From: an uncultured Gemmatimonadales bacterium
Lineage (GTDB): Bacteria; Gemmatimonadota; Gemmatimonadetes; Gemmatimonadales; GWC2-71-9
NCBI GenBank assembly: GCA_963730185.1
Contig: CAVSQW010000015.1
Span: forward strand, 128,001 to 192,000
Length of the DNA stretch: 64,000 bases
Reading direction: 5' to 3'
The first letter of the stretch is position 1, and each line of letters starts with the position of its first letter. Below the pieces are notes generated by a model, which saw nothing but the letters and a program-made list of their open reading frames with translations, was not told the origin of the DNA and searched no databases. The position numbers were made by a program, and so were the translations under genes. This document shows, piece by piece, positions 17,482-54,340 of the stretch.

Positions 17482-17526
17482 AAGATGGCCATCGGTCGAT
17501 AAAGCGATCATAAGGCCGGCGTGAAC
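17482..17526 (-). promoter_or_regulatory. Regulon promoter (three 11-bp-spaced repeats + -10) for ccoNO
   Basis: Minus strand GTTCA, CCTTA, CTTTA at 11-nt period; CATCTT starts 17 nt after the start of the last repeat. Confidence 0.6.
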
Positions 17527-19424
17527 GGATCTTCAGCGATCGCATCTCGTTCAGCGGCTTCCGACGCCCGGGCCGCTGCGGCCTGGTGCAGGGCCTGCTC
17601 GGCGGGGCCGGCCCGAACGACCCGGAGGGCATTGAGGATCACCGCCACGTCGATGGCCTCCTGGATGAGGGCCCCGATCGGCGGCGCCACGAAGCCAAAG
17701 GCGGCGAAGAGCATCCCGGCGGCGCTCAGTCCCAGTCCTACGCCGATCGACTGCCGGGCGATCTGCATGGTCCGCCGGGCGATGGCTACCGCCTCGGGCA
17801 CGCGGCCCAGGTCGTCGACGAGGAGTACGATGTCCGCCGCTTCGGCGCTGATCCCGCCACCCGAGCCGGCGAGCGCGAGGCCGACACCCGCGGCGCTCAG
17901 GGCGGGCGCGTCGTTGGCGCCGTCGCCCACCATGAGCACCCGTCGTCCCAGCTTGGTGAGCCGGGCCACCAGGGCCACCTTGTCCTGGGGGAGGAGGTCG
18001 CCCCGGGCCTCGGTGATGCCGAGGGCCTCGGCCGTCGCCGTCACGTTGGCGGTCCGATCGCCGGAGAGCAGGAGGACGCGCTTGACTCCGAGATCACCGA
18101 GGGCGCGGACCACCGCGGCCGCGTTGGACCGGAGCCGGTCCGCGTAGTTGATGATCCCGGCGGCCCGGCCGTCCACCGCGATGTAGCCGCGGAGGCCGAG
18201 GCTCGGCTCCTGCTCGGCGAAGCCAGCCGCCGCGGCCGGCTCCCACTCCCGAAGCAGGCTCAGTGCCCCGACCGTCACCTGGTGGCCGTCGACTGACCCG
18301 GCCACCCCCCGCCCCGCCGCTTCGACCACGTGCTCGGCCGGCGGCAGCGGGCCGCATCGGGCGAGCGCCGCCTCGACCACGGTCGTGGCCAGCAGGTGGC
18401 CGGATCCCTGCTCCACCGCGCCGGCCAGACGGTAGAGCTCGGTCTCCTCGAACGGCGGGAGGGCGTCGATCCGGGTCACGATCGGCCGGCCCAGGGTCAC
18501 GGTCCCGGTCTTGTCGAACACCGCGGTGTCGATTTGGGCCAGCTGCTCCAGCGCGCCGCCGTGCCGGACGATGATCTGGTGCTTGGCGGCCCGGTTGATT
18601 CCGCCCAGGAAGGCGACCGGCGCCGCCAGAATCAGGGGGCAGGGGGTGGCGATCACCAGGACGGCCAGCACCCGGGTCGGGTCGCCCGACGCGAGCCAGG
18701 TAACCAGGCAGACGACGATGGTGAGAGGCGTGAACCAGATCGCCGCCCGGTCGGCCAGCCGTTGGAGCGGGGCCTTGCTCTCCTGCGCGCTCCTGACCAG
18801 CTCCACGATCCGGTTGTAGAGGCTCATGGCGGCGACGGCGGTTACCTCGACCGTCAGCGGCCCGTCCAGGTTCACCACCCCGCTCGAGAGAGCGGTGCCC
18901 GCCTCGGCGGCGAGAGGGAGCGGCTCACCGGTGAGCCGCGATGTGTCCACGCCCGACCGCCCGGCGATCACCCGGCCGTCGCAGGGCACCATCTCACCCG
19001 GACGCACCAGAACCCGGTCGCCGACGACGACCTGGTCCACCGGTACGTCCACGATCCCGTCGAGCACCACCTGGTGGGCGATGACGGGGGCCTCGGCTTC
19101 GAGCTGCTCCACTGCGCGTGACGCCCGGCGGGCGGCGTAGTCCTCCAGGGCCTCGCCGCCGGTTTGCATCAGCACGATCACCATCCCCGCGAACGGCTGG
19201 ACCAGCACGACCGCCGCGACCACGGCCAGCGAGGCGACGATGTCGGCCGCGTAGCGCCCCCGCAGCATCCCGCGGATCGTCGCGACCACGATGGGAGTTC
19301 CCAACACGACCAGCCCCACCATCCAGACGATGGTGCGGGCGGAAGGGGCGGATACGACTCGCGGGGCCAGAAGCCCCGCGAGGATCACACCGCCGGCCGC
19401 GGCGGGACGGATGGCGTGACGCAC
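17508..19424 (-). CDS. Heavy-metal P1B-type ATPase (PCP motif, P1B-5-like)
   Basis: LTGEP, ATPCP, DKTGT, GDGAND, QEAID. Confidence 0.9.
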   Translation of the reverse strand: MRHAIRPAAAGGVILAGLLAPRVVSAPSARTIVWMVGLVVLGTPIVVATIRGMLRGRYAADIVASLAVVAAVVLVQPFAGMVIVLMQTGGEALEDYAARRASRAVEQLEAEAPVIAHQVVLDGIVDVPVDQVVVGDRVLVRPGEMVPCDGRVIAGRSGVDTSRLTGEPLPLAAEAGTALSSGVVNLDGPLTVEVTAVAAMSLYNRIVELVRSAQESKAPLQRLADRAAIWFTPLTIVVCLVTWLASGDPTRVLAVLVIATPCPLILAAPVAFLGGINRAAKHQIIVRHGGALEQLAQIDTAVFDKTGTVTLGRPIVTRIDALPPFEETELYRLAGAVEQGSGHLLATTVVEAALARCGPLPPAEHVVEAAGRGVAGSVDGHQVTVGALSLLREWEPAAAAGFAEQEPSLGLRGYIAVDGRAAGIINYADRLRSNAAAVVRALGDLGVKRVLLLSGDRTANVTATAEALGITEARGDLLPQDKVALVARLTKLGRRVLMVGDGANDAPALSAAGVGLALAGSGGGISAEAADIVLLVDDLGRVPEAVAIARRTMQIARQSIGVGLGLSAAGMLFAAFGFVAPPIGALIQEAIDVAVILNALRVVRAGPAEQALHQAAAARASEAAERDAIAEDPFTPAL

Positions 19425-19434
19425 GGGGCCTCTC

Positions 19435-20133
19435 TTAGTGCCGACCGACCTTGACCGCCGCCTCCGCGTGTCGGAGGCAGAAGCCGACCCCGCGCACCGT
19501 TTCGACCCGGGGGTCGTTCACGTGCTTGGCGAGCTTGCGGCGGAGGTTACCGACGTGCACGTCGACGACATTGCTCTCGGGGTCGAAGTGCATGTCCCAG
19601 ACCTTCTCGAGGAGCGTCGTCCGCCGCACCACCTCTTCAGGATGGAGCATGAAGTACTCGAAGAGCTGGAACTCCTTCGCCGTCAGGTCCAGCCGCTGGC
19701 CGTTGGCCATGGCCTGGTGCCGCAGCCGGTCGAGCTCGAACGGACCGTAGCGAAGGACCTCCAGCCGGTCGGCGCCGCCGCGGCGGTGGAGCGCTCTGAG
19801 CCGGGCCAGGAGCTCCTCGAATCGGAACGGCTTGGTGAGATAGTCGTCGGCCCCGACGTCGAGCCCCCGTACGATGTCTTCCACCGAGTCCCGTGAGGTC
19901 AGCATCAGGATGGGCGTGTTCCGCCCTTCGCGGCGGAGCTCCGCGGCGACCTGAAACCCGCTCTTCTTGGGAAGGAGGACGTCGAGCAAAATGACGTCGT
20001 ACTCGTAGACGTGGGCCAGCATGGTGGCTTCCTCGCCGTCGGGGGCAACGTCGACGACGTACCCCTCTTCCTTGAGGCCCTGCTCGATGAAGCCCGCGAC
20101 TTTCCGGTCGTCTTCCACCACGAGGATCTTCAT
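19435..20133 (-). CDS. OmpR/PhoB-family response regulator
   Basis: VVEDD, LLD, DDYLTKPF, SNVVDVHVGNLRRKL, ETVRGVGF. Confidence 0.95.
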   Translation of the reverse strand: MKILVVEDDRKVAGFIEQGLKEEGYVVDVAPDGEEATMLAHVYEYDVILLDVLLPKKSGFQVAAELRREGRNTPILMLTSRDSVEDIVRGLDVGADDYLTKPFRFEELLARLRALHRRGGADRLEVLRYGPFELDRLRHQAMANGQRLDLTAKEFQLFEYFMLHPEEVVRRTTLLEKVWDMHFDPESNVVDVHVGNLRRKLAKHVNDPRVETVRGVGFCLRHAEAAVKVGRH

Positions 20134-20166: not shown

Positions 20167-20211
20167 AGTTTACTCGGTCCCCTCTAAACCCCGGGTCAAG
20201 GTTTTATGAAG
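20167..20211 (-). promoter_or_regulatory. Regulon promoter of the response regulator (possible autoregulation)
   Basis: Minus strand CTTCA, CTTGA, GTTTA at 11-nt period; TAAACT at +17. Confidence 0.65.
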
Positions 20212-20217: not shown

Positions 20218-21450
20218 TCATGGTCCCGCGGCCGGCAATCTCAGGGCGAACCGGCCGCCATGGCCGGGCTGGGCGACGGCGATCAGGTCGCCGCCCAGGA
20301 CGCGAGCCAACCGGCGGGACAGGGGGAGCCCCACGCCGTAGCCCACCCGGCCGGTCTCGGCCGCGTTCGCGGTGGTGTAGTAGATGTCGAAGATCCGCTC
20401 CACGTCGTCCTCGGCCACCCCGTCGCCCTGGTCGAGCACGGTGATCTCGACCCGACCGTCGACCGCCTCCGCGGTGAGCTCGATCTGGCTTCCGGCGGGT
20501 GTGTGGCGGATGGCATTGGTCAGGACGTTGACCAGGATCTGCTCCACCCGGTGAGCGTCGGTATGGCAGAGCAGATGGACGTCTCGAGGGGGCGTCCCGA
20601 AGGTGACCCGTTTTTCGTCCGCCGAGGGCGTAATTCGGATGATCGCTGTCTGGATCAGCTGGCAGCAGTCGACCACTTTGAGGATCGGCTTCAGGCGGTC
20701 CTCGTCGAGACGGTTCAGGTCGAGGAGGTCGTTCACCAGCGCCACCGCCTGCTCGGCCGCCTCGAGAATCTCGAATGCGCCCCGCGGCACCGTCTCGGGG
20801 TCCTTCCGGCGGACCAGCATCTCCGACCAGCCGTAGACCGCGGCCAGGGCGTTCCGGAGTTCGTGGTTGACCATCGCGAAGAACCGCTCGCGGGAGCGGT
20901 GGAGCTGCTGGACCTCCTCGAGGAGATGCGCGGTCCGCTCGTAGAGGCGGGCGTTTTCCACGGCGGAGGCGATGATCGCGGCGAGGAGCTGGGCCAGGTG
21001 CACGTCTTCGTCGCTGAACTCGGCGGCGTCGACCTTCTCGGTGAGGTAGAGGTCGCCCAGCACGCCCTGGCGCCCGACGATCGGAACGCCGAGGAACGAC
21101 TTCATGGGCGGGTGGTGCTTCGGGAAGCCGACCGACGCCGGGTGCCGCTGGATGTCGGGCAGCCGGACCATCTGGCCTTCCCGGATGACCAGGCCCAACA
21201 CACCGTGCCCGATGGGGAGGGTCCCGATCCGGGCGCGCTCGGCGTCGCCCAGGCCGGAAGTGGTGAAGCTGGCCAGCGTCTCGTTGTCGGGATTGAGCAG
21301 GCCGATGGCGCTGTACCGCGCGCTGAGCACTTCGCGGCCCAGGTCGGCCACCCGCTGGAGCACCCGATCAAGCCGAAGCTCGCCGACGAGCTCCGGAGTG
21401 ATGCGGACGAGCCGCTCGATGCGTTCGTGGGAAGCGCCGCCAGTCGGCAT
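20218..21450 (-). CDS. GAF (DosS/DevS-like) sensor histidine kinase, HisKA-HATPase, no TM
   Basis: HPASVGFPKHHPPMKSFLGVP...DLYLTEK GAF; NHELRNAL H-box; NVLTNAIRH, DQGDG, GYGVGL. Confidence 0.92.
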   Translation of the reverse strand: MPTGGASHERIERLVRITPELVGELRLDRVLQRVADLGREVLSARYSAIGLLNPDNETLASFTTSGLGDAERARIGTLPIGHGVLGLVIREGQMVRLPDIQRHPASVGFPKHHPPMKSFLGVPIVGRQGVLGDLYLTEKVDAAEFSDEDVHLAQLLAAIIASAVENARLYERTAHLLEEVQQLHRSRERFFAMVNHELRNALAAVYGWSEMLVRRKDPETVPRGAFEILEAAEQAVALVNDLLDLNRLDEDRLKPILKVVDCCQLIQTAIIRITPSADEKRVTFGTPPRDVHLLCHTDAHRVEQILVNVLTNAIRHTPAGSQIELTAEAVDGRVEITVLDQGDGVAEDDVERIFDIYYTTANAAETGRVGYGVGLPLSRRLARVLGGDLIAVAQPGHGGRFALRLPAAGP

Positions 21451-21512: not shown

Positions 21513-21557
21513 CTTAGTGAAGGCTTCACCCGCTCTTCATGGAGCCGCCGGTAGTGT
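21513..21557 (+). promoter_or_regulatory. Regulon promoter for usp
   Basis: CTTAG/CTTCA/CTTCA at 21513/21524/21535; TAGTGT at 21552. Confidence 0.65.
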
Positions 21558-21589
21558 TTCGCTACGAGGGAAGGAGTGCTGCAACGTCG

Positions 21590-22456
21590 GTGGACCTCAA
21601 ACACATGCTGGTGGCAACCGATGACTCGCCGGGCGGGCGGCACGCCGTCCGGACCGCGCGCGCCTTGGCGAGCGCGCTGCACGCGACCCTGGCGATCCTG
21701 ACCGTGGAGTCGGTCCGGCCGGAGGGGCCGCTGCCGGCCGGACGTCTGGTGTCGACCCGAGTGAAGGACGGGCCGCCGGTGGACGACTTGGGCAGGTTTT
21801 CGAGCTGGCTCGGGAGCGATGCCGCCACCGACGGGCTGCCCGAGCCGCCCGAGTTGGCGGTCGGGTTCGGGATCGCGGGGATCGAGATTGGGCGGTTCGC
21901 GACGCTCCGAGCGGCCGATCTGATCGTGCTCGGGCGCCGCCCTCGCGCCCCCGACCGCCGTCTCGTCTTGGGCGCGACGGCCGACGGGTTGGTTCGGCGC
22001 TCGGCTACGCCGATCCTCTTCGTTCCCCCCGAAGTCACTACGCTGCGCTCGGTGCTGCTCGCGTTGGATCCGACGGAGCGGAGCGCCCGGGTGGCGCGGG
22101 TCGGGCTCGACTTCGCGCGGACGGTGGGAGCCACGGTGGTGGAGGCCGTGACGGTCCGGCCGAGCGGGACCGGGGAGCCCAGCGCGCCGTCGGTCCTGCC
22201 GGGGCGCCGGCCGGTGCGGATCGATCAAGTGCTGCATCGGGCGGCGGCGGCGATGATCGAGCTCGGTCCGATCCCGCTCACCATCCGGCAGGGTGATCCA
22301 ATCGAAGAGGTGCTCGCGGAGGCGGCGTCCAGCGGGGCGGACGTCCTGGTGATCGGCTATCGGCGGGGTGGTCCGCCCAAATACGTGAGCCCGACGGAGA
22401 TCGCCCGGAACCTCCTGTACGCGGCGCCCTGTGCCGTGTTGACCGTCCCGCTCTAG
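21590..22456 (+). CDS. Universal stress protein, tandem domains
   Basis: MLVATDDS, DLIVLG...LGATADGLVRRSATPILFVP, PCAVLTVP; start uncertain. Confidence 0.85.
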   Translation: MDLKHMLVATDDSPGGRHAVRTARALASALHATLAILTVESVRPEGPLPAGRLVSTRVKDGPPVDDLGRFSSWLGSDAATDGLPEPPELAVGFGIAGIEIGRFATLRAADLIVLGRRPRAPDRRLVLGATADGLVRRSATPILFVPPEVTTLRSVLLALDPTERSARVARVGLDFARTVGATVVEAVTVRPSGTGEPSAPSVLPGRRPVRIDQVLHRAAAAMIELGPIPLTIRQGDPIEEVLAEAASSGADVLVIGYRRGGPPKYVSPTEIARNLLYAAPCAVLTVPL

Positions 22457-23410: not shown

Positions 23411-23455
23411 CTTCACGCCCCGCTCACCGCTCGCTCAGGCCGCTGGATCTACCCT
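23411..23455 (+). promoter_or_regulatory. Regulon promoter for DUF2892-acg-mgtC
   Basis: CTTCA/GCTCA/GCTCA at 23411/23422/23433; TACCCT at 23450. Confidence 0.6.
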
Positions 23456-23494: not shown

Positions 23495-23704
23495 ATGACG
23501 CGCAATGTGGGAGGCCTGGATCGGGCGATTCGCCTGCTGCTCGGTGTGCTCCTGCTGGGGCTCTACGGTGCCCTGGATCCGCCCTGGAAGTTCGTGACCC
23601 TGCTGGGGTTGATTCCCCTTGGCACTGCCCTGACCGGAATGTGCCCCCTCTATTCGATGCTCGGGATCTCGACCCGTCGGTCGGGGCCGGGCGGGGCTCG
23701 ATGA
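23495..23704 (+). CDS. DUF2892 (YgaP-like) membrane protein
   Basis: NVGGLDRAIR...CPLYSMLGIST; AAGGAGG RBS. Confidence 0.88.
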   Translation: MTRNVGGLDRAIRLLLGVLLLGLYGALDPPWKFVTLLGLIPLGTALTGMCPLYSMLGISTRRSGPGGAR

Positions 23705-23719
23705 GCCACGGAGGCCCTC

Positions 23720-24748: not shown

Positions 24749-24755
24749 CCCGGCC

Positions 24756-26036: not shown

Positions 26037-26081
26037 TTTCGGGAGACTTTCACGTCTCCTTCAGGCGCGAGCGGGCATCTT
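26037..26081 (+). promoter_or_regulatory. Regulon promoter for usp
   Basis: TTTCG/TTTCA/CTTCA at 26037/26048/26059; CATCTT at 26076. Confidence 0.6.
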
Positions 26082-28686: not shown

Positions 28687-28804
28687 ATTTTAGGCGTGGA
28701 TGGCTGAAGTCACCGTGAAGGGCCGGTGAGCCCAGGTCCGATTCTCGACTCGCCGAACGCTACACGGTCGCTTCACCTCCGATTCATCGGCCTCCGGCCA
28801 GATT
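28687..28804. promoter_or_regulatory. Back-to-back regulon promoters (baeRF on -, hydrolase-like gene on +)
   Basis: Minus: GCTCA/CTTCA/CTTCA then TAAAAT (28692-28687). Plus: CTACA/CTTCA/ATTCA at 28760/28771/28782 then CAGATT at 28799. Confidence 0.65.
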
Positions 28805-29981: not shown

Positions 29982-30026
29982 ACACTACCGGGCGGGACCT
30001 AAAGCCACCTTGAAGGACCTCTGAAG
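29982..30026 (-). promoter_or_regulatory. Regulon promoter for the CBS gene
   Basis: Minus strand CTTCA/CTTCA/CTTTA; TAGTGT at +17. Confidence 0.65.
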
Positions 30027-31036: not shown

Positions 31037-31081
31037 CTTATCCGGCCGTTAAGCGTGGGTTCATGCTGGGGTTGCCATATT
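31037..31081 (+). promoter_or_regulatory. Regulon promoter for hsp20
   Basis: CTTAT/GTTAA/GTTCA at 31037/31048/31059; CATATT at 31076. Confidence 0.6.
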
Positions 31082-31711: not shown

Positions 31712-32029
31712 ATGGCCGCTCGCAAACCCCTCCTCCGCGGGATCGACGCCCGCGTCCTCAAGCGGGCCGCGGAGATCATCAAGCTCGTCGGACACCCGGA
31801 GCGCCTCAAGATCGTGGAGGCCCTGGAGGGCGGCGAGTGCACGGTCGGCACCCTCTGCGAGATCTGTGATCTGGGGCAGGCGATCTGCTCCCAGCACCTG
31901 AGCCGGCTCCGAGACAAGGGCGTGGTGGCATCCCGGCGGGACGGCCTCCACGTGATCTACCGGCTGATCGAACCCAAAGTCCCCATGATCCTCGAGTGTA
32001 TCCGAAAATGCGACGTTCCCCGCTCCTGA
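31712..32029 (+). CDS. ArsR/SmtB family regulator, Cys-rich
   Basis: GHPERLKIV, SQHLSRLR, SRRDGLHVIYRL. Confidence 0.92.
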   Translation: MAARKPLLRGIDARVLKRAAEIIKLVGHPERLKIVEALEGGECTVGTLCEICDLGQAICSQHLSRLRDKGVVASRRDGLHVIYRLIEPKVPMILECIRKCDVPRS

Positions 32030-42532: not shown

Positions 42533-42641
42533 AAGGTCGGGGCCGTGGCTTAACGTGGTCGTGGAACGGCCCTGAGCGTTTCTTCCGAAGGGAACCCTTC
42601 CCGACGGCTTCAGGTCCGCTTCATCGACGCGAGCGCTGATT
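42533..42641. promoter_or_regulatory. Back-to-back regulon promoters (usp on -, esterase operon on +)
   Basis: Plus: CTTCC/CTTCA/CTTCA at 42597/42608/42619, CTGATT at 42636. Minus (weaker): GCTCA/TTCCA/CGTTA, then GACCTT. Confidence 0.55.
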
Positions 42642-42666: not shown

Positions 42667-44595
42667 ATGGGGACCGCTCGTAGGGCATTGATGGTGGAGG
42701 CCCAGCTGGCCGGACGGGGGATTGCCGATCCGGCGGTGCTCGCGGCCATGAACGCCGTGTCGCGCGAGTCCTATCTTCCGAACCAGCTGATCGATGAGGC
42801 CTGGGACGATGCGGCGATCGTCGTGGCGCCGGGTCAGGTGTTGCCGCAACCTTGGCTTCTGGCCCGGGCGCTCGAGGCCCTGGAGCCCAGCCCCGCCGAC
42901 CGGGTGCTGGAGCTCGACGCCGGCCTGGACTACTCGACCGCGGTGCTCCGCCGGCTGGTGCGGGAGGTCGTGACGGTCCCGCCGACCGACGGCGACCCCC
43001 CGTTCGACGCGATCCTGGTCCACGACCGGACCGAGGCGGCGGCGGTGCGACTCCTGCCTTGGCTCCGCGAGGGTGGGCGTCTGGTGGCCGTGGTCCCGGA
43101 AGGTCCCGGGGAGCGCCGGTTGGTGCGGTTCCGGCGCCGACGCGGCGGAACCGAGTACGACCGTAACCCGCTCGAGCGGGCCCGCTTCGTGCTGCTCCCC
43201 TGGGGCGCCGAGACCCGCTCCGACCTGGGCCGCTACCTGCCCGGGCTGGCGCCGTCCGATCCGCGGGCCGCGGCCGGGCTGGTCCGGGAGGTAGCCGAAC
43301 CGTTCGGGTCGGTCGAGGACTTCGATCCCGGCCCGATTCTGGAGCGACTGGGCGACGCCCGTCTGGTGCTCATCGGGGAGGCGAGTCACGGGACCTCGGA
43401 GTTCTACCGGCTCCGCGCCCGCCTAACGCGGGCACTGATCGAGCGCCGGCGCTTCGCCTTCGTCGCCGCGGAAGCGGACTGGCCCGACGCGACCCAAGTG
43501 GATCGGTACGTCCGGCACCGGCCGCCCGACCCGGCCGACGAGCCGCCCTTCATCCGGTTTCCGACCTGGATGTGGCGCAACCGCGAGGTGGCCGGGTTCG
43601 TCGGGTGGCTCCACGAGTGGAACGCGGGGCGGGGCAGCGGGGGCGGCCGGGTCGGCTTCCACGGCCTCGATCTCTATAGCCTTCGAACCTCGCTCCGCCT
43701 GGTCCTGGACTATCTCGACCGGGTCGACCCGGCTGCGGCCCGCCTGGCGCGGGAACGCTACGGGTGCCTCCGCCCGTGGGAGCTCTCGCCGGCCGCCTAC
43801 GGCCGCTACGCGCTCTCGGCCGGTTACCGCTCCTGCGAGGAGCCGGTGGTCCGGCAGCTGACCGAGCTGCTTCGGCAACGGCTGGCCTATGGCGGCCGGG
43901 ACGGTGAGCAGTTCTTCGACGCCGAGCAGAATGCCCGGCTGGTAGCCGACGCCGAGCGGTACTATCGGGCGATGTACTACGGCTCGGTCGCCTCGTGGAA
44001 TCTCCGTGATCGGCACATGTTCGCCACCCTGGACCGGCTGCTGACGGCCTACGGGCCGACCTCCCGCGGCGTGGTCTGGGCCCACAACTCGCACCTGGGT
44101 GACGCCTCGGCCACCGAGCTGGGCGGGCGGGGCGAGCTCAACATGGGTCAGCTCTGCCGGGCGGCGTTCGGGCCGAGCGCCTATCTGATCGGATTCGGGA
44201 CCGACCGCGGGACGGTGGCAGCGGCCCAGGACTGGGACGGGCCGCTCGAGATCAAGACGGTCCGCCCGGCCCATCCGGAGAGCTACGAAGCTCTTTGTCG
44301 CGCGGCCGAACGACCGGCCTTCGCGCTTCACCTTCGGGACCCGCGGCGGCCCGAGGTGCGGGACGAGCTGCTGCCGATTCGCCTGGAACGGGCGATCGGC
44401 GTCATCTATCGCCCCGAGACGGAGCGTCAGAGCCACTACTTCGCGGCCTCGCTTCCGCGCCAGTTCGACGAGTACCTCTGGGTGAGTGAAACGAGCGCCG
44501 TGGCCCCGCTGGCCGTTACCGAGCGATTCCCCCCGGTTTCACGGGACCTTCAGGGCCCGATGGCCACGTTGCGGGGAGGGGAGGAGAGCCGCTGA
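42667..44595 (+). CDS. Erythromycin-esterase-family protein with degenerate N-terminal Pcm-like domain
   Basis: IGEASHGTSEFY, EADWPD, FPTWMWRN, WNLRDRHM, VVWAHNSH, ERAIGVIYRP. Confidence 0.9.
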   Translation: MGTARRALMVEAQLAGRGIADPAVLAAMNAVSRESYLPNQLIDEAWDDAAIVVAPGQVLPQPWLLARALEALEPSPADRVLELDAGLDYSTAVLRRLVREVVTVPPTDGDPPFDAILVHDRTEAAAVRLLPWLREGGRLVAVVPEGPGERRLVRFRRRRGGTEYDRNPLERARFVLLPWGAETRSDLGRYLPGLAPSDPRAAAGLVREVAEPFGSVEDFDPGPILERLGDARLVLIGEASHGTSEFYRLRARLTRALIERRRFAFVAAEADWPDATQVDRYVRHRPPDPADEPPFIRFPTWMWRNREVAGFVGWLHEWNAGRGSGGGRVGFHGLDLYSLRTSLRLVLDYLDRVDPAAARLARERYGCLRPWELSPAAYGRYALSAGYRSCEEPVVRQLTELLRQRLAYGGRDGEQFFDAEQNARLVADAERYYRAMYYGSVASWNLRDRHMFATLDRLLTAYGPTSRGVVWAHNSHLGDASATELGGRGELNMGQLCRAAFGPSAYLIGFGTDRGTVAAAQDWDGPLEIKTVRPAHPESYEALCRAAERPAFALHLRDPRRPEVRDELLPIRLERAIGVIYRPETERQSHYFAASLPRQFDEYLWVSETSAVAPLAVTERFPPVSRDLQGPMATLRGGEESR

Positions 44596-45260: not shown

Positions 45261-45281
45261 GACGCCTGGAAGGAGGCCTCC

Positions 45282-45982: not shown

Positions 45983-46420
45983 TCAGGTCGGAATCTGGGT
46001 CCCCTGGCGGGCCAGGAGTCGCCCGATGGCCTGGGCCTCGTCGACCAAGAGCTCCATGACGTCGTCGAGGCTCACGATTCCCGCGACGTGACCACCCTTA
46101 GCGGTGACGACGAGTCGGCGGGTGCCGAGCCGGGCCATCCGGTTCAACGCCTGCTCGATCGGGGTGTCCTCGTCGACGGTCTGGGCCGGGGTCGACATGA
46201 CCGTCGCGATGGCGGTCTCCTCGGGGTCGAGTCCGGCGGCCAGGCAGCGGGTCACCAGGTCGCGGTCGGTCACGATCCCAACCGGCTCCTGGAAGGATTC
46301 GCCGCCGAGAACCACCAGGGTGCCCACGTCCTCCTCGTTCATGCGCCGAGCGACCGTCCGGACGGTCTCGGTGGCGGTCGCCGTCGCGACGACCCGGCTG
46401 GCGATGCGTCCGACCGACAT
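45983..46420 (-). CDS. CBS-pair protein
   Basis: PVGIVTDRDLV, AGIVSLDDV. Confidence 0.9.
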   Translation of the reverse strand: MSVGRIASRVVATATATETVRTVARRMNEEDVGTLVVLGGESFQEPVGIVTDRDLVTRCLAAGLDPEETAIATVMSTPAQTVDEDTPIEQALNRMARLGTRRLVVTAKGGHVAGIVSLDDVMELLVDEAQAIGRLLARQGTQIPT

Positions 46421-46468: not shown

Positions 46469-46578
46469 ACGGTACCGCGTAGCGGGTGAGGGCGGCCTGA
46501 AGCCTGAGTGAGAAGGTGATGAGCGCCCGGGAACTTCCCGCTGCGTTAATGCTGTCGTCAGGATCGGCGTCCCAACTT
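46469..46578. promoter_or_regulatory. Back-to-back regulon promoters (CBS on -, glgA on +)
   Basis: Minus: four TCA repeats (forward TGA at 46487/46498/46509/46520), then TACCGT. Plus: CTTCC/GTTAA/CGTCA at 46534/46545/46556, CAACTT at 46573. Confidence 0.6.
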
Positions 46579-46587: not shown

Positions 46588-48144
46588 ATGACGACGACCG
46601 CCCCGATCTCCGCTCCCGCCGCACTCCCCCGCCGCACCGTCGCCGAACCGTTGCGCCGCCGATCGCGGACGGCCTTCCACTCCCGCGCCCAGGTGGTACA
46701 TCTCTCGGCCGAGTATGGTGCCCTGGCCCGGACCGGCGGCCTGGCTGAGGCGGTCGAAGGCCTGGCGCGAGCCCAAGCCCGGACCGGATCTCCCCGGGCG
46801 GCGGTGATCCTCCCCCTTTACCCCGCGCTCCGGCGCTCCGGGCGGTTTGTCCCATTGGCCTCCGACGGCCGCGCCGATCCGGGGGCGGTTCCGGTGTGGC
46901 GGGATGTGGCTCAGGCGGAGGCGGGACAACCCGACGTCCTGGCGCTGGACCTCCCTGGCTTCGACCGCCCGGGAATCTACGGCGAGGACGGCGTCGACTA
47001 TCCGGACAATCCCGCCCGTTTCTCGACCTTCGTGCGGGCGGCGCTCGAGGTCATGCCGCGACTGACGCCGGCCATCCGGGTGCTGCACGTCCACGACTGG
47101 CACGCGGGCCTGGCCCCAGCCCTGCTCCGTACCGAGTGGGCCGGCCGGCGATTCTACGACGCCATCGCGACGGTCCTGACCGTGCACAACGGGGCCTACC
47201 AGGGGCGCTTTCCCCGAGGAGTGTGTGACGGGCTAGGCCTTCCGTCCGCCGTCCTCGACGCCTTGGTGCCTGACCGTGAGGGGCGCCTCGCCTGGCTGGA
47301 CCTCGCCCTTCGGTTTGCCGACCTGGTGACCACGGTGAGCCCGAACCACGCCGAGGAGCTCCGGACGCCGCTGGGCGGCTTCGGCCTCGACGATCGCTAT
47401 CGGGCCTTGGGCGACCGGCTGGTCGGGATTCGAAACGGGATCGACGCCATCCACTGGGATCCCGCGACGGATGGGGCCTTGCCGGCCTTCTTCCAGGCCG
47501 GCTCCCGCGCCGGACGGGCCGCCAGTCGGACGGCGGTCGACCGGGCCCTCGGCTTTCCCTCGGACGGGGCACCGCTGATCGGGCTCGTCGGTCGACTGGT
47601 CGAGCAGAAAGGCATCGACCTGGTCGCCGATGGTCGGCTGGTCGAGTGGTTTCCGGAGGCGCGGTTCGTCGTGATGGGCGAGGGGAGGCCGGAGTACCGG
47701 GACCGGCTCCGCGGGTTGGCGGCGCGGTTTCCCGACCGGGTCCGGGCGCCGCTGGCCTTCGACGAGGGGTTCGAGCGCCGGCTCATGGCGGGCGCGGACC
47801 TCGTGCTGGTGCCCTCCCTGTACGAACCCTGCGGGCTGGCGCAGCTCCACGCCCAGCGGTACGGGGCCGTGCCGGTGGTACGGCGGGTCGGCGGCCTGGC
47901 GGACGCGGTGGTGGACGGGGTGACGGGATTCGTCTTTGACGAGTATTCCGTGCCCGCCCTCGCGGAGGCCTTGGGCCGGGCGCTCGCCGCCCGGCGGAAC
48001 CCGATCGGGTGGCCCGTGTTGGTGGAGCGGGTCATGCGGCTGAATGTCGGGTGGGACGACGCGGTGCCTCGGTTCCGCGACGTCTATCGGGCCGCCTGCA
48101 CCCGTCACGCCGCCTGGGAGGTGCAGGCGCATCGGAACCCGTGA
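46588..48144 (+). CDS. glgA: Glycogen synthase (GT5)
   Basis: RTGGL, HVHDWH, TVHN, RLVEQKG, PSLYEPCGL. Confidence 0.85.
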   Translation: MTTTAPISAPAALPRRTVAEPLRRRSRTAFHSRAQVVHLSAEYGALARTGGLAEAVEGLARAQARTGSPRAAVILPLYPALRRSGRFVPLASDGRADPGAVPVWRDVAQAEAGQPDVLALDLPGFDRPGIYGEDGVDYPDNPARFSTFVRAALEVMPRLTPAIRVLHVHDWHAGLAPALLRTEWAGRRFYDAIATVLTVHNGAYQGRFPRGVCDGLGLPSAVLDALVPDREGRLAWLDLALRFADLVTTVSPNHAEELRTPLGGFGLDDRYRALGDRLVGIRNGIDAIHWDPATDGALPAFFQAGSRAGRAASRTAVDRALGFPSDGAPLIGLVGRLVEQKGIDLVADGRLVEWFPEARFVVMGEGRPEYRDRLRGLAARFPDRVRAPLAFDEGFERRLMAGADLVLVPSLYEPCGLAQLHAQRYGAVPVVRRVGGLADAVVDGVTGFVFDEYSVPALAEALGRALAARRNPIGWPVLVERVMRLNVGWDDAVPRFRDVYRAACTRHAAWEVQAHRNP

Positions 48145-48156
48145 CCGGGGCGGACG

Positions 48157-48203
48157 CAAAGAAGAGGCGGAGGGTCTCGCCTCTCTCGAGACCCTCCGCC
48201 TTT
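48157..48203. terminator. Intrinsic terminator, probably bidirectional
   Basis: 15-bp stem AGGCGGAGGGTCTCG/CGAGACCCTCCGCCT; followed by CTTCTTT on the - strand and TTCCC on the + strand. Confidence 0.8.
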
Positions 48204-48336
48204 CCCTCGTTCGGCGTCCGGATGGAGAGTCCGGTGGAGTCCCGCTGCTCTAGGCTTGGCGCGGGTCGCCGACGGGAGCGGCCGACGACGGCCGACCGCT
48301 CCAGGCCGACGGCGTCCTTCACTTCCACCCTCGGCA
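48157..48336 (-). ncRNA. Candidate regulon-controlled small RNA (~180 nt)
   Basis: Bounded by a regulon promoter (CTTCA/GCTCA/CTTCA at 48386-48360, TATCGT at 48347-48342) and the terminator; no convincing ORF inside. Confidence 0.45.
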
Positions 48337-48638
48337 CTCCAACGATAGTCCGGAGCCGCTGAAGGGGCGGTGAGCTGACCGTGAAGCTTCGATGTCAGCG
48401 CCCGGGCAAACGACGGCCCCGGCGGCTCGGCTACGCCCCCGGGGCCTGGGAGTGGGTCGGGCAAGTGAACCATTCGGGTCACTTTCTTGAGACGCCGGCC
48501 ACCCGCGCCGACAGTCCCGTGGGCACTACCTTCGCCCTTCCTGCCGCCCGACCTTCACCATCAAGATAGCCTCGGCGCGTTAGGAAATGGCGAAGCTCGC
48601 TTGACGTCCCGTTCATCGTCGGGGAGGGACGCCGGCTT

Positions 48639-48683
48639 CTTCGTCGCCGCTTCAGGTCTTCTTCAACCGGTCCCGCCCAGATT
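48639..48683 (+). promoter_or_regulatory. Regulon promoter for usp
   Basis: CTTCG/CTTCA/CTTCA at 48639/48650/48661; CAGATT at 48678. Confidence 0.65.
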
Positions 48684-48720: not shown

Positions 48721-49626
48721 ATGCTTCGCTCGCTCGTGGTTCCGCTCGATGGCTCGGGCTTCGCCGAGACCGCGATTCCCGTCGCCCGGGCGCTGGCTCG
48801 TGCGGCCGGGGCGTCGATTCGCTTGGTGATGGCGCACCAGCCGAGTCCGGTCCTGGTCGGGGCCTCCGCCCCGGACGACCGGGAGGTGCAGGCCCAGGAA
48901 CGCACCTACCTCGCCGCCCAGGCGGCCGACCTCCGGCAGCTGGCGTCAGGTCCGGGCTCGCAGGTGCTGCTCGAGGGGCATCCCGGTCCCGCCCTGGTCG
49001 AGTGGCTCACGGCGGAGCAGCCGGACCTCGTGGTCATGGCCACCCACGGGCGCGGCCCCGCCAGCCGGTTCTGGCTCGGCAGCGTGGCCGACTACCTGGT
49101 TCGCCATGCCCGCGCGCCGCTCCTGCTGCTCCGGCCCCCGGCGGCCGAGGGGCCGCAGGCGGCCCCGACCTTCCGGGCTGGCCTGGTCGCGCTCGATCTG
49201 TCCAACCGGGCGGAGGCCGTCCTGGAGACGGTGGCGCCGCTGGCCCTCGCGACCCAGGCGCACCTGACCCTGCTCTACGTACTCGAACCCGGTCTGGGCA
49301 TGGCCGGCACGCCGGCGCCCTACCCCGTCTCGCTGCCGCACGACTTGCTGGAGCACACCCGCGAGGAGGCCCAGCGCTACCTCGATGGCGTGGCCGACCG
49401 GCTTCGGACCCGCGGACTCCAGGTCGCCACGAAAGTCCTCGTTGGCTTCGGCGTCGCCGGCGCCTTGTTGGCACAGTTGGGTCGCGACGAATACGACTTC
49501 GTGGCCGCCTCCACCCATGGTGCCGGCGGCTTCCGGCGGATGCTGATCGGCAGCGTGGCCGACAAACTGGTGCGGGGCGCCACCAAGCCCGTGCTGTTGG
49601 TGCGGTCGGATCGGCATCTGCCCTGA
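48721..49626 (+). CDS. Universal stress protein, tandem domains
   Basis: VVPLDGS, ATHGRG...LGSVAD; close paralog of 26133..27056. Confidence 0.93.
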   Translation: MLRSLVVPLDGSGFAETAIPVARALARAAGASIRLVMAHQPSPVLVGASAPDDREVQAQERTYLAAQAADLRQLASGPGSQVLLEGHPGPALVEWLTAEQPDLVVMATHGRGPASRFWLGSVADYLVRHARAPLLLLRPPAAEGPQAAPTFRAGLVALDLSNRAEAVLETVAPLALATQAHLTLLYVLEPGLGMAGTPAPYPVSLPHDLLEHTREEAQRYLDGVADRLRTRGLQVATKVLVGFGVAGALLAQLGRDEYDFVAASTHGAGGFRRMLIGSVADKLVRGATKPVLLVRSDRHLP

Positions 49627-49640: not shown

Positions 49641-49696
49641 CGTCACCGGGCGTTACAGAATCCTTCATGCTGCGTTCAGGCGGGGCGCAGCATGTT
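49641..49696 (+). promoter_or_regulatory. Regulon promoter for usp
   Basis: CGTCA/GTTAC/CTTCA/GTTCA at 49641/49652/49663/49674; CATGTT at 49691. Confidence 0.65.
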
Positions 49697-49750: not shown

Positions 49751-50662
49751 ATGACCCGGTCGATTCTGCTGCCGCTCGACGGCTCGCGCTTTGCCGAGGC
49801 CGCGATTCCCCTCGCGCTCGAGCTGGCGCGAAAGGCGCGCGCGTCGATCCACCTCATCCACGCCCACGAAGGCGTGCCCGCGGCCCTGGTGCACGGTGAC
49901 CTCGGGCCGGGTGGCGAGTCCGACTTGGGCGAGGAACGGAGCTATCTCGCAGAGACAGCCGCTCGCCTCTCCTCGGGATCGGTGGAGATCAGCTACCAGC
50001 TGGTCGACGGGCCGCCGGTCGAGGCCCTCGACGAGTGGATCGTAGAGCACCGGCCCGCCTTGGTGGTCCTGGCCACCCACGGTCGGGGCTCGCTCGACCC
50101 CCTCTGGCTCGGAAGCGTGGCGGAGCACCTCGCACGGTGCGCGGCTGCTCCCCTGCTCCTGGTGCGGCCCGAAGACGGCGCCCCGCTCCCGTCACCGGTC
50201 CCGAGCATCCGGCGGGTTCTGGCGCCGATCGACTTCGCCGAGGGGCACGAGGCCCTGGTCGATCGGTTGGGTGAGTTCGCCGGTTTCGTCCAGGCCCACG
50301 TGACCCTGCTCCACGTGGTCGCGCCGCCGCGCGGGCTGCCTGAGGCCGCGGCCCCGGCCCCCGGGCGTGGGCTGGTCTGGCAGACGCCGGCGGAGGCGGG
50401 CGCGCAGCGTTGGCTCGATCGGCTGGCCGACCGGCTCCGCGCCCGGGGAGTGGCGGCGGCGGCTCGGGTCGTGGGGGAGCCCGACATCGGCCCGGCGATC
50501 CTCGAATACGCCGACCGGATCGCCGCCGACGTCGTGGCGCTCCACGCGCACGGCTGCGGCGAGTCTCACGACGGAGGCATCGGGCCCGTCGTGGACCACG
50601 TGGTCCGCGGTGCCCGGACTCCGATCCTGATCCTTCCGCCGATCCGTCCCCAGGCGATCTGA
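49751..50662 (+). CDS. Universal stress protein, tandem domains
   Basis: LLPLDGS, ATHGRG...LGSVAE. Confidence 0.9.
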   Translation: MTRSILLPLDGSRFAEAAIPLALELARKARASIHLIHAHEGVPAALVHGDLGPGGESDLGEERSYLAETAARLSSGSVEISYQLVDGPPVEALDEWIVEHRPALVVLATHGRGSLDPLWLGSVAEHLARCAAAPLLLVRPEDGAPLPSPVPSIRRVLAPIDFAEGHEALVDRLGEFAGFVQAHVTLLHVVAPPRGLPEAAAPAPGRGLVWQTPAEAGAQRWLDRLADRLRARGVAAAARVVGEPDIGPAILEYADRIAADVVALHAHGCGESHDGGIGPVVDHVVRGARTPILILPPIRPQAI

Positions 50663-50781: not shown

Positions 50782-50826
50782 TTTAATCCCCGCTTCACCT
50801 CCGGTTCAGCGGCGCCCCGCCAACTT
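50782..50826 (+). promoter_or_regulatory. Regulon promoter for DUF5661/HPF-CSD
   Basis: TTTAA/CTTCA/GTTCA at 50782/50793/50804; CAACTT at 50821. Confidence 0.65.
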
Positions 50827-50866: not shown

Positions 50867-51181
50867 ATGTTGGGCAGGTCACGATTCGCCACCGACCAGG
50901 TGCTGAAGGTCGGCACGGTGCTGGGGATCAACTGGGAAGAGGTGGATCTGGAGCAGTTTCGGCGCGGTCTCGAGGTGGAGCTCGAGCACGGCCGGCGGAG
51001 CCCGCTGACCGACCTCACCGGCGACGATCCGGTGTTGACCGGGAAGATCGCCCTCGCGCATCTCCGCGAGGTGCCCGACTACTACTCCCGGCTCGACGCG
51101 ATGGGGCGGGAGGCCGAAGCCGATTGGAAGGGTCGCCGGACGGCGGCCGTTCGGGGGTTCGCGGGCGAGGAGCCGTGCTGA
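50867..51181 (+). CDS. DUF5661-like small protein
   Basis: FRRGLEVELEHG...KIALAHLREVPDYYSRL. Confidence 0.75.
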   Translation: MLGRSRFATDQVLKVGTVLGINWEEVDLEQFRRGLEVELEHGRRSPLTDLTGDDPVLTGKIALAHLREVPDYYSRLDAMGREAEADWKGRRTAAVRGFAGEEPC

Positions 51182-51200: not shown

Positions 51201-51863
51201 ATGACGACGAAGCTCGGAGGCGCCGGCCGAGAAGGGGCGGCGCAGGCGCTGTCGGACCTGGGGAGGGAGGGGATCGTGACCGAGACCACGAAACGGAGTC
51301 GCACCAGCCGCGAAGCCACCGAGGCGCCGCCGACCTGTCAGATCGTCGCCAAAGCTCTCGAGGTGGATCCCGGCATCCAGGCCCTGATCCGGCGCGAAGC
51401 CCGCAAGCTGAGCCAGTTCTTCGACCGGATTCTCGACGTTCGCGTGGTCGTGAGTACGCCGCACCGGCGCCTCCATCGCGAGACGGTCGACTACGCCGTC
51501 CGGATCTACCTGGCGGTGCCTCGCGACGAGCTGGTGGTGAAGCGCCAGCGTGACGCCGATCTTCGGACCGCCATCCAGGCGGCGTTCCGGGCGGCGGGGC
51601 GGGTGCTCCAGGACTACGCCACCCGGCGGCGCGACCCACCGCCGGTCCAGGCGAAGGCGCCCGTGGGGCGGGTGAGTCGGCTGTTCCCGTACGAAGGCTA
51701 TGGCTTCCTCACCGGCGAAGACGGCACCGATCTCTACTTCCACCGCAACGCGGTCGCCGGCGGCCGGTTCGACGAGATCGCGGTCGGCGAGCGGGTTCGC
51801 TACGCCGCGGCCGAGGGCAATCTGGGGCCGCAGGCGAGCCGGGTGACCCGGGGACGCCGGTGA
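51201..51863 (+). CDS. HPF/RaiA-like domain fused to a cold-shock domain
   Basis: KLSQFFDRILDVRVVV...DLRTAIQAAF, then GYGFLTGEDGTDLYFHRN...GPQASRV; start uncertain. Confidence 0.85.
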   Translation: MTTKLGGAGREGAAQALSDLGREGIVTETTKRSRTSREATEAPPTCQIVAKALEVDPGIQALIRREARKLSQFFDRILDVRVVVSTPHRRLHRETVDYAVRIYLAVPRDELVVKRQRDADLRTAIQAAFRAAGRVLQDYATRRRDPPPVQAKAPVGRVSRLFPYEGYGFLTGEDGTDLYFHRNAVAGGRFDEIAVGERVRYAAAEGNLGPQASRVTRGRR

Positions 51864-51879: not shown

Positions 51880-54266
51880 TCACCGGCCCGCGCTCAGCCG
51901 CTTTGCCACCCGCGCCACCGAATCGGGGTTGAGCGAGATCGAGTCGATCCCGATCGACACCAACCATTCGGCAAACTCCGGGTCGTCGCTGGGCGCCTGG
52001 CCGCAGATGCCGACTGGGCGCCCCTGGCGGTGCACCCCCTCGACCACCATCCGGATCAGGCGCTTGACGCCGGGGTCGCTCTCCCGGAAGAGCGGGGCCA
52101 GGATCTCGGAGTCCCGGTCCACCCCGAGCGCCAGCTGGGTCAGGTCGTTCGACCCGATCGAGAAGCCGTCGAACAGCTGGGCGAACTCCTCGGCGAGGAT
52201 CACGTTGTTCGGGATTTCGCACATCACCCAGACCTCGAGGCCCCGCTCGCCCCGGATCAACCCGTTCGCGGTCAGCTCGGCCAGCACCCGCTCCGCCTCC
52301 TCGAGGGTGCGGCAGAACGGGATCATCACTTTGACGTTGGTGAGCCCCAGGTCGTCGCGAACCCGGCGGATCGCCGAGCACTCGAGAGCGAAGCCCTCGC
52401 GATAGCGGTGGTCGTAGTAACGCGACGCGCCCCGGAAACCAATCATCGGATTGGACTCGACCGGCTCGAAGTCCACCCCTCCGAGGAGGCCGGCGTATTC
52501 GTTGGTCTTGAAGTCCGAGAACCGGACCAGCACCGGCTTGGGGTAGAAGGCCGCCGCGATCTGGGCCACCCCGCTCGCCAAACGCTCCACGAAGAACTCG
52601 GCCGGGGCACCGGCGCCGGCGGCCGCCTCGCGGATCCGGGCTCTCACCGTGGGGTCGGAAACCCGATCGGGATGGATCAGGGCCATCGGGTGGATCCCGA
52701 TCCAGCTCGAGATCACGAACTCGAGCCGGACCAGCCCGACGCCGTGCGACGGTAGCCGGGCAAAGGCGAAGGCCCGGTCGGGGTTCGCCAGGTTGAGGCA
52801 GAGCGGGACGGGCGGCTCGGGCAGGGTTGCGGGGTCGACGGTCTCCCGGGCGAACGGCACCACGTCCTCGTACACGAAGCCGGCCTCACCCTCGGCACAG
52901 GACACGGTCACGATCTGACCGGGGCGGAGGGTGGTCGTGGCTTCGGCCGCCCCGACGACGCAGGGAATGCCGAGCTCACGCGACACGATGGCGGCATGGC
53001 AGGTCCGACCTCCTTCGTCCGTCACCACCGCGGCGGCTCGCCGGAGTACCGGCTCCCACGACGGATCGGTCATCCGGCTGACCAGGATCTCGCCGTCCTC
53101 GAAGCCGGAGAGGTCCGCGGGGGCTCGGATGATCCGGACCGGTCCCGACGCCACCTGTGCCCCGACGCTCTTGCCTTGGATCAGGACCCGGGCCGGTCCG
53201 GCGCGGTGGTAAATTTCAAGCGGTGCGGCCGGCGTCTTCCCGTGGACGGTTTCGGGGCGGGCCTGCACCAGGTAGAGGAGGCCGTCGAGGCCGTCCTTGG
53301 CCCACTCGATGTCCATCGGCCGTCGATAGTGACGCTCGACCGCCACCGCCCAGCGGGCCAGCGCCAAGATGTCGTCGTCGCCGAGGATCGCGCGGCGGCG
53401 ATCGCTCGCCTCGACCGGCACCTCGACGACGGCCCCGGAGCCGTCCTCATATACGACCTTCACTTTTTTGTCGGCGATCTCGCGGCGAATCAGCGATCGG
53501 TATCCGGCCTCGAGGGTCGGTTTGTGGACCAGGAACTCGTCGGGACGGACCCGCCCCTGGACCACCGATTCGGCGATGCCCCAGGCGCCGGTAACCATCA
53601 CCACGTCGCGGAAGCCGGTCTCGGTATCGAGGGTGAAGATCACGCCGGCCGAGGCCAGATCGCTCCGGACCATCTTCTGGACCCCGACCGAGAGCGCGAC
53701 CTGTCCGTGGCCGAAGCCATGGGTGGCCCGGTAGACGATCGCGCGGTCGGTATAGAGCGACGCCATACAGGCCCGGACGGCGCGATCGAGGGCGGCCTGA
53801 CCCCGGACGTTGAGATAGCTTTCGTGCTGGCCCGCGAAGCTGGCGGTCGGCAGATCTTCGGCGGTAGCGCTCGAGCGGACGGCGACGTCGACGGCCTCCA
53901 CGCCGTATTCGGCCGAGAGCTGGCGGTAGCCGGCGGCGAGTTCTTCGGCCACGACGTCTGGCAGCGGGGCTTCCCGAATCCGGGCCCGAATCGCGCTCGC
54001 CGTCCGGGCCAGGGCGGCCACATCGGTCGGGTCAAGCTCGGCCAGCTGCCGCTCGACCCAGGCGGTGAGTCCGGCCCGCTCGAGGTGAAGCCGGAAGGCG
54101 TCGGCCGTGAGGGCGAATCCGTCCGGCACCCGGACTCCTGCCGAGCCGAGGGCGGTGGCCAGCTCGCCGAGGGAGGCATTCTTCCCCCGACCAGGGGGAG
54201 GTCGGCGAGCCGGAGGTCGCCGAAGGGGATCAGGTGGGCGGTACGGGCGACGGTGGCGGCGGTCAT
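51880..54266 (-). CDS. ppsA: Phosphoenolpyruvate synthase (apparent 1-nt frameshift near 54186)
   Basis: VGG-K-NASLGE split across frames at a G-run; VRSSATAED, SFAGQ, GGRTCHAAI, SIGSNDLTQ, GICGQAP. Confidence 0.93.
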
Positions 54267-54296
54267 GATCCGGCTCCTCGAAACTGTCCCAATCTC

Positions 54297-54340
54297 AAGG
54301 TCCGCCCGGGTGGTGATCTCCCGGTGGAGAAAGGGTGAAG
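54297..54340 (-). promoter_or_regulatory. Weak regulon promoter for ppsA
   Basis: Minus strand CTTCA/CTCCA/GATCA at 11-nt period; GACCTT at +16. Confidence 0.45.

Follow-up and report, generated by a model that had tools for sequence, protein, structure and literature searches.

A DosT-like sensor kinase and a CusR-related response regulator are the predicted controllers of a proposed low-oxygen regulon marked by 11 bp-periodic promoter repeats in Gemmatimonadales

A 64 kb stretch of DNA from an uncultured Gemmatimonadales bacterium (the window hereafter; C15:128001-192000 of a 5.27 Mb assembly, labelled G000, with 70 % G+C) contains a large set of promoters marked by three (C/G)TTCA pentamers at an 11 bp period, followed by an nAnnnT hexamer whose first base lies 17 nt beyond that of the last pentamer. 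We think it probable, from the sequence comparisons presented here, that a soluble sensor kinase with a DosT-like GAF domain (20218..21450, minus strand) and the neighbouring response regulator of the OmpR/PhoB family (19435..20133, minus strand) use this motif to run a low-oxygen, or nitric oxide (NO)/carbon monoxide (CO), regulon of about 35 promoters genome-wide. The window represents 1.2 % of the genome, and a preliminary description of it had proposed that one activator drives this region; most of the sites in the window stand, but the predicted control is not local: of the 38 genome sites that exceed 15 bits, 21 are found elsewhere in the genome, and a gene follows 19 of these 21, which rules out a window-only regulon. 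A literature search, which left most subscription journals outside its reach, returned no description of this system.

The periodicity of the repeats is evident without any training. When the whole genome was searched for three pentamers at a fixed period with no more than two mismatches in total, a period of 11 gave 37 matches, 34 of them intergenic and 13 inside the window. Periods of 7, 8, 10, 13, 14 and 16 gave 5-16 matches each, with 0-1 in the window, and periods of 9, 12 and 15 gave 162-175, which are mostly coding because of codon phase and include no intergenic match in the window. The hexamer nAnnnT stands at offset +17 in 10 of the 13 window matches and 10 of the 24 outside ones, and at any other offset between 10 and 25 in at most 2 and 3 of these, respectively. 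When a matrix was trained independently on 10 sites that all lie elsewhere in the genome, 17 sites in the window exceeded 10 bits, 16 of them intergenic; at 12 bits there are 16 intergenic window sites, against a mean of 0.075 and a maximum of 1 in 200 dinucleotide shuffles, the comparison with a shuffled background that had been suggested as a check. A matrix of the repeats alone gives 51 intergenic genome matches, of which 29 have nAnnnT at +17 and no more than 5 have it at any other offset, and 47 of the 51 face a same-strand gene (baseline 53 %). The period scan and the orientation thus bear out the preliminary view that the repeats recur every 11 nt and are aimed at the downstream gene, and all 15 of the hexamers that it quoted are exactly placed. 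Chance or codon periodicity as the source of the motif is ruled out by the period scan, the shuffles and the genome controls.

Some details of the motif differ from that first account. Three pentamers are regular, but the fourth that was sometimes claimed is present at -11 in only 3 of the 38 genome sites scored with the final matrix, which was built from all 20 training sites. The hexamer generally fits nAnnnT, but that of an esterase operon (CTGATT) lacks the A and that of ppsA stands at +16. The geometry had been likened to that of pho boxes; the 11 bp direct repeats agree with this, but a pure pho-box geometry does not hold, because some promoters bear an inverted head, TGAAG-N4-CTTCA, ahead of the direct repeats, and the motif is shared with CusR-like regulators, as described below. 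The inverted head occurs at about six promoters in this genome (an exact inverted half-site at only 3 of the 38 sites) and is well conserved at the regulator promoters of relatives, where its columns are T 61, A 63, A 56 and G 60 of 63; a 6-4-6 inverted repeat with in-phase direct repeats is thus present at a subset of promoters, namely the regulator's in relatives, nosZ and about six in this genome. No TTGACA-type -35 element is conserved under or between the repeats. The sites of FNR and CRP are palindromes, TTGAT-N4-ATCAA and TGTGA-N6-TCACA. Neither these nor DosR palindromes are suited as the common element, as the conserved columns are direct repeats with an inverted head of the form TGA-N8-TCA, with the limit that neither type of box was scanned for separately.

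The regulator has a receiver domain (PF00072) and a Trans_reg_C winged helix (PF00486), both above cut-off, and its best PDB matches are DrrD, PrrA, RegX3 and PhoP. Among the eight full-length OmpR regulators of this genome it is the only one with a strong upstream site (28.5 bits, the next best being 8.2); scores of -8 to -14 bits were obtained upstream of phoB, phoR, the pst porin gene and pstS. The 80 closest kinase loci all come from metagenome-assembled genomes or uncultured members of the Gemmatimonadota/Gemmatimonadales; the regulator lies directly behind the kinase in 78 of them, and both misses are at contig ends. Its promoter carries the motif at more than 10 bits in 63 of these 78 relatives and in none of 80 coding controls, and in the 15 below threshold a CTTCA-like repeat is still visible by eye, several being shifted by one base. 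An ATG follows the hexamer by 6-7 nt in 58 of the 63, a spacing typical of leaderless transcripts, which supports the hexamer as a -10 element. A P1B heavy-metal ATPase (17508..19424, minus strand; TIGR01525/TIGR01512 above cut-off) starts 10 bp downstream of the regulator, with which it is likely co-transcribed, and has a match in 59 of the 80 loci.

Across genomes the motif follows the regulator gene. Absence of the regulator here means that it was not found with this regulator as the query; on that basis it is present in 48 of 58 near-complete genomes of the family to which the window belongs and in only 6 of 62 others, at 60-67 % identity. In a sample of 59 genomes of this family, all at least 95 % complete and scanned with a strict pattern, the 48 genomes with the regulator hold 164 matches (41 have at least one) and the 11 without it hold 2 (in two genomes), with 6 and 5 matches, respectively, for the reversed-pattern controls; in the six genera that include both kinds, members without the regulator have no match. 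A second sample, which shares eight genomes with the first, has 130 strict matches in 36 genomes that encode the regulator at 72 % identity or more, compared with 13 for a period-10 control, and 10 matches in 20 regulator-less genomes (at least 90 % complete) compared with 9; five less complete regulator-less genomes were set aside, with 11, 3, 3, 0 and 0 matches. The co-occurrence, the single strong site among eight OmpR regulators and the 63 of 78 promoters together uphold the regulator at 19435..20133 as the best candidate for the predicted binder, as first proposed, and its own promoter does carry the motif.

The kinase (410 aa) consists of a single GAF domain (residues 26-166) joined directly to HisKA, with H196 as the phospho-accepting residue, and HATPase_c, by Pfam assignment. 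Its best PDB match is DosT GAF-A (2VZW, E 9.5e-40), followed by DosS, and an AlphaFold model (mean pLDDT 80.8) superimposes on 2VZW with a root mean square deviation of 1.7 Å at 51 % identity. H113 aligns with DosS His149 and DosT His147, Y135 with DosS Tyr171 and DosT Tyr169, and G50 with DosS Glu87 and DosT Gly85; in one account His149 is the proximal ligand of DosS and Tyr171 discriminates between ligands, and the Gly that DosT has in place of DosS Glu87 is reported to allow stable O2 binding (PMC4082495). These three residues and H196 are invariant in all 35 homologues aligned, which were hand-picked from the 120 matches listed. The GAF domain is therefore predicted to bind heme, and a low-oxygen or gas signal is proposed because the kinase with this DosT-like domain adjoins the regulator. 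The preliminary description had not mentioned this kinase. The kinase model contains no transmembrane segment, and a second DosS-like GAF domain was not found in this assembly. The upstream region of the kinase gene is without the motif but has TACTAT 6 nt before the ATG; the promoter is leaderless-like and likely constitutive. The kinase is present in 36 of 61 genomes of the order. A search of representative proteins found the same GAF-HisKA type, in some cases with additional N-terminal domains, and an Atlas search returned Gemmatimonadota clusters first and then longer proteins of Actinomycetota, Sumerlaeota and Chloroflexota. Several relatives (P0128, P0133, P0137, P0140, P0148 and P0122) have extra N-terminal PAS- or GAF-like domains and include a HisKA kinase with three DosS-type GAF domains.

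The set of targets is one of low-oxygen respiration and dormancy genes. Outside the window, the targets are a [NiFe] hydrogenase, pyruvate:ferredoxin oxidoreductase, a V-type ATPase, an acyl-CoA dehydrogenase with ETF, a NapA-like molybdoenzyme with cytochromes and NrfD, and cytochrome c with a Sec-type (clade II) NosZ (TIGR04246 above cut-off; promoter at C1:23431), together with a di-heme peroxidase and OsmC with a divergent 1-Cys peroxiredoxin. Other sites precede genes for OmpW, tyrosine phenol-lyase, S15 peptidases, a PALP enzyme, a radical SAM protein and an AAA_33 protein; among 37 proteins scanned, 5 are without a Pfam match, and a sixth usp gene, which lies outside the window, has no site. 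At the nosZ operon, the promoters of 9 of 17 regulator-bearing genomes exceed 10 bits, against none in 8 genomes that lack the regulator, and the nosZ promoters also carry the inverted head. In one genome (G022, L171:147-2457) the regulator gene lies directly ahead of cytochrome c and a nosZ homologue.

Within the window, 16 of the 18 sites originally claimed are strong (20.6-33.0 bits), two are weak, and one at 44526 on the plus strand had been overlooked. Those on the minus strand at 17482..17526 (21.5 bits, with an inverted head) and 20167..20211 (28.5 bits, with a partial inverted head upstream) precede the ccoNO-Q-P-G cbb3 oxidase and maturation genes (9181-17428) and the regulator, respectively. 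A plus-strand site (21513..21557, 32.4 bits) belongs to the usp gene at 21554-22456, which is divergent from the kinase and whose equivalent is the commonest motif target in related loci. Further plus-strand sites lie before a ygaP-acg-mgtC/DUF4010 operon at 23495-26015 (23411..23455, 26.5 bits, inverted head), whose Acg matches NF047509 above cut-off, and the usp gene at 26133-27056 (26037..26081, 23.5 bits). Back-to-back sites at 28687..28731 (minus strand, 30.9 bits) and 28760..28804 (plus strand, 30.1 bits) face baeRF10 (27486-28655) with a DUF302 gene and an open reading frame (ORF) without a Pfam match (28860-29498), followed by a minus-strand site for a CBS protein gene at 29491-29952 (29982..30026, 30.4 bits) and a plus-strand site for hsp20 at 31136-31579 (31037..31081, 22.1 bits). 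The PCMT/erythromycin-esterase operon at 42667-45953 has the plus-strand site with hexamer CTGATT (42597..42641, 25.8 bits), and the overlooked site (44526..44570, plus strand, 20.8 bits) is in the 3' end of the esterase gene, before a phosphoribosyltransferase gene at 44595-45260. A second divergent pair comprises 46469..46513 (minus strand, 23.6 bits, with four repeats), for the CBS protein gene at 45983-46420, and 46534..46578 (plus strand, 20.6 bits), for glycogen synthase at 46588-48144. Plus-strand sites also precede the usp genes at 48721-49626 (48639..48683, 33.0 bits) and 49751-50662 (49652..49696, 25.1 bits), and the DUF5661 gene at 50867-51181 with the S30AE(HPF)-CSD gene at 51201-51863 (50782..50826, 32.6 bits). 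The two weak sites are both on the minus strand: that before the usp gene at 41558-42493 (42533..42577, 6.0 bits, the repeats alone 0.9) is doubtful, so that four of the five usp genes said to share the motif have strong sites, and that before ppsA (54296..54340) scores 5.2 bits, with 14.9 for the repeats and nAnnnT one base closer.

One strong minus-strand site (48342..48386, 30.2 bits) heads a unit (48150-48335, about 185 nt) in which no ORF is credible; it has a fold z-score of -3.9 and a long terminator-like 3' hairpin shared with the glgA end. This unit is a candidate regulated small RNA; it has no Rfam match and is not conserved, the only matches being short GC-rich stretches (23-46 nt) in 7 of the 21 congeners, and a conserved small RNA is unsupported beyond the promoter, hairpin and fold.

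Genes without the motif are interspersed with these. As had been noted, TTGAC is present at the arsR, mscS and tRNA promoters; their motif scores are negative. An operon inside the cluster (31712-38488), comprising genes for ArsR, an outer-membrane efflux protein, two further efflux-type proteins, and P-II-like, YgaP-like and thioredoxin proteins, has a TTGAC promoter with an AT-rich operator-like stretch. Neither mscS nor the following gene, which is cysS-like by its N-terminus (39148-41506), has a site; among the 80 related loci, 23 and 22, respectively, have them at a distance of 10 kb or less from the kinase, and the pair is probably part of the ancestral neighbourhood. A plus-strand gene for a helix-hairpin-helix protein resembling the PolX N-terminus (30038-30997) has no site of its own, and its start overlaps the repeats of the CBS promoter. 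About six short plus-strand ORFs for membrane proteins with similar C-termini (3235-5193) lie upstream of a pspA-like gene. Gene models were made with a simple in-house caller, and one-base frameshifts near 55650 (tuf), 57780 (rplK), 57000 (nusG), 54150 (ppsA), 14190 (ccoG) and 23060 (CHAD) are most likely assembly errors rather than pseudogenes, since three fall in essential genes; odd spacing at single sites may therefore be sequencing error as well.

The relatives of the regulator point to metal resistance. Its best NCBIfam family is cztR_silR_copR (TIGR01387), at 231.6 bits, below the cut-off of 279.2, and four sister regulators score 245-252 bits, likewise below it. These sisters (57-67 % identity) adjoin membrane CusS-like kinases and cus-type efflux or copA genes; the two sister kinases that were scanned have TIGR01386 as their best family, below cut-off. 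The motif is found before the cus/copA genes of the sisters in five genomes (G149, G121, G110, G040 and G042), which either yielded no heme-kinase pair or were not searched for one. Near the sister regulators of G027 and G103 there are single sites, the sister stretch of G011 has no site above 11 bits, and the more distant sisters of G119 and G147 have weaker variants. Many of the sister sites also bear the inverted head. The recognition helices of the sisters are near-identical to that of the regulator, and those of the seven other OmpR regulators are unlike it. Because the sisters carry it at cus/copA promoters, the motif is tied to the protein lineage of the regulator. In a tree, the regulators next to heme kinases form a clade with 96/92 support inside a CusR-like group. 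Identity of the kinase core to those of the sister kinases is 27-32 %, a value not above that for other HisKA proteins, so the partner was apparently exchanged as a whole. The regulator thus seems to derive from a copper/heavy-metal-resistance lineage, having kept its DNA motif and changed its kinase, and a metal-to-oxygen direction is likely on the present comparisons. CusRS-like systems of Gemmatimonadota with the same or similar repeats at cus/copA promoters were seen in the loci L158-L164, L167 and L168, and genomes with both heme-kinase and CusRS-like systems raise the question of cross-talk.

In the mechanism that we propose, the deoxy-heme kinase would phosphorylate the regulator at low O2 (or with NO or CO), and the phosphorylated regulator would bind three half-sites on a single helix face, at about -51, -40 and -29, in place of a -35 element; bound there it would activate its targets and raise its own level.

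It seems unlikely, if worth keeping in view, that the regulator does bind the motif but answers to something other than O2, be it NO, CO, sulfide, the heme redox state or the output of another (e.g. metal-sensing) kinase. DosT binds O2, NO and CO (PMC8534201) and DosS is reported to bind H2S, the regulator is nearest to a heavy-metal family and a P1B ATPase is next in line; yet G50 matches DosT Gly85, for which stable O2 binding is claimed in the source cited above (PMC4082495), and the targets are low-oxygen respiration genes. In addition, this genome's own copA-like upstream region has no site, its cus-type upstream regions reach at most 7.5 bits, and kinase and regulator are adjacent in 78 of 80 loci.

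We regard as improbable a different binder in this genome, whether a sister CusR-like regulator missing from the assembly, an OmpR paralogue or PhoB. In its favour, other genomes show the motif in use by the sisters, completeness of the assembly is 82 %, and the motif occurs without the regulator in three incomplete genomes; set against this, no other regulator of this genome passes E 1e-60 against 19435-20133, the other seven OmpR regulators share only 28-43 % identity with it in the DNA-binding domain, and near-complete genomes without the regulator are at background. PhoB as the binder is rejected, as the phoB-phoR-pst locus has no motif at its promoters and the regulator falls far below the PhoB cut-off.

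Repression, in which sites covering the -35 region would block transcription until a signal removes the regulator, appears more improbable still. The sites do overlap the -35 position, and OmpR-family regulators such as MtrA are described as activating or repressing according to site position (PMC7380067); but no TTGACA-type -35 element is conserved beneath or between the repeats, the spacing to the -10 element does not vary by a single base, which is what direct contact with RNA polymerase would call for, and the related AgrR is given there as a class II activator with positive autoregulation (PMC7380067). Least credible of all is that the repeats belong to the promoters of an alternative sigma factor, for which rigid -10 spacing is also typical, or are a chance or compositional pattern, which the shuffles (0.075 against 16) largely refute. 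Three copies at the 11 bp period, now and then with an inverted head, suit a DNA-binding dimer, and motif presence follows the regulator gene.

Several observations nevertheless weigh against control by the heme kinase and its regulator. Three incomplete genomes contain the motif but no regulator (G003 with 11 matches, G018 with 3 and G052 with 3), and only G003 is accounted for, by a contig break at the expected kinase position; conversely, strict-pattern matches are absent from 7 of 48 regulator-bearing genomes, and in 8 of 17 no nosZ site exceeds 10 bits. Kinship makes the genomes non-independent in the co-occurrence counts, and with the incompleteness and indel errors of this assembly a sister regulator could be missing. 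The genome also encodes two Crp/Fnr-type and about 11 LuxR/NarL-type regulators, which may co-regulate. G045 has a sister-type DosS-like GAF-HisKA kinase (L165:5516-6949; 37 % core identity) with no such regulator or motif nearby, and the nesting of the regulator among CusR-like sisters has support of only 81/78 and 91/82, with a midpoint root.

The system would work like DosST-DosR but is not a member of it. They have in common a GAF-A domain of the heme-binding type, in which the proximal His, the distal Tyr and the Gly of DosT are retained, promoters with two to four sites in tandem, autoregulation (predicted here), and the target families Usp, Acg, Hsp20/HspX and cation P-type ATPase. The CBS, erythromycin-esterase, AAA_33, S30AE and baeRF targets presumably have equivalents in the DosR regulon. 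The published DosR list includes acg, hspX and ctpF (PMC7801807), and the DosR-like set here comprises four usp genes (with the fifth weak), acg, hsp20, two CBS genes and HPF. The kinase here differs in having one GAF domain rather than tandem GAF-A/GAF-B and a HisKA core; that of DosS and DosT is of the HisKA_3 type. DosR is assigned to the NarL/UhpA family (PMC13486717) and Dev boxes are described as 18 bp palindromes (PMC3177182), whereas the regulator here is an OmpR/PhoB winged-helix protein and its sites are 11 bp direct repeats, Dev boxes not having been scanned for separately. The regulon, in another phylum, adds cbb3 oxidase, NosZ, hydrogenase and pyruvate:ferredoxin oxidoreductase.

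Neither is this a true CusRS system. The CusR/CopR/CzcR/AgrR group is the best-scoring family of the regulator and the sisters beside cus/copA share its motif, but the regulator is below the TIGR01387 cut-off, its partner is a soluble GAF kinase with only 79.9 bits on TIGR01386, the adjacent P1B ATPase is the only metal gene, and the regulon spans the genome where theirs is a local efflux operon. The pho box of PhoB likewise has direct repeats of 11 bp period in place of the -35 element, at a similar distance from the -10; the repeat sequence here is different, a separate phoB-phoR-pst locus is without the motif, and the regulator scores 200.5 bits against a PhoB cut-off of 296.2. The pst-porin promoter (C7:259235-259370) has GTTAC repeats 11 bp apart, a candidate for the Pho box of this organism. 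AgrR recognizes a 6-4-6 inverted repeat with in-phase direct repeats as an autoregulating class II activator (PMC7380067); the regulator and nosZ promoters here have the same geometry (ATGAAG-N4-CTTCAT plus repeats), with CTTCA rather than TGT(A/C)A as the half-site. ResDE/SrrAB and ArcAB share two-component control of low-oxygen genes with this system, but their kinases are anchored in the membrane and considered to be indirect sensors of respiration (PMC4601167), while the kinase here has a DosT-type, presumably gas-binding domain and, in its model, no transmembrane segment. The Burkholderia lxa cluster is described as a 50 kb low-oxygen-induced region with six usp genes, whose activator is unsettled and for which FixLJ has been suggested (PMC12071387), and Myxococcus NmpRSTU as a heme-dependent pathway controlling oxygen-utilization genes (PMC11841059). 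NmpR differs in being NtrC-like, acting with sigma54 and binding GCGCA-N5-TGCGC. The regulators of ResDE/SrrAB and ArcAB are of the OmpR family. ResDE/SrrAB, lxa and NmpRSTU reach similar outputs with other parts.

In summary, a poorly studied phylum gains a global regulator with a predicted sensor, a motif and a list of targets. The chances seem to us about even for the wider reading, that a widespread, apparently uncultured Gemmatimonadales family paired a DosT-type sensor with a copper-resistance regulator, whose motif then spread until the regulon converged on that of DosR, and placed clade II nitrous oxide (N2O) reductase under direct O2/NO/CO control. If true, a DosT-type heme domain outside the mycobacteria would drive an OmpR-type rather than a NarL-type regulator, with largely shared gene families as targets. 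A regulon would then have been rebuilt cleanly from different parts, for which the sister metal-resistance systems with the same motif offer a plausible route. The oxygen regulators described for nosZ are of FNR/NNR types, and nosZ expression in air is reported for Gemmatimonas aurantiaca (PMC10100939). From the motif one can predict which Gemmatimonadales switch on N2O reduction at low O2 and which regulate it otherwise, which bears on N2O sinks.

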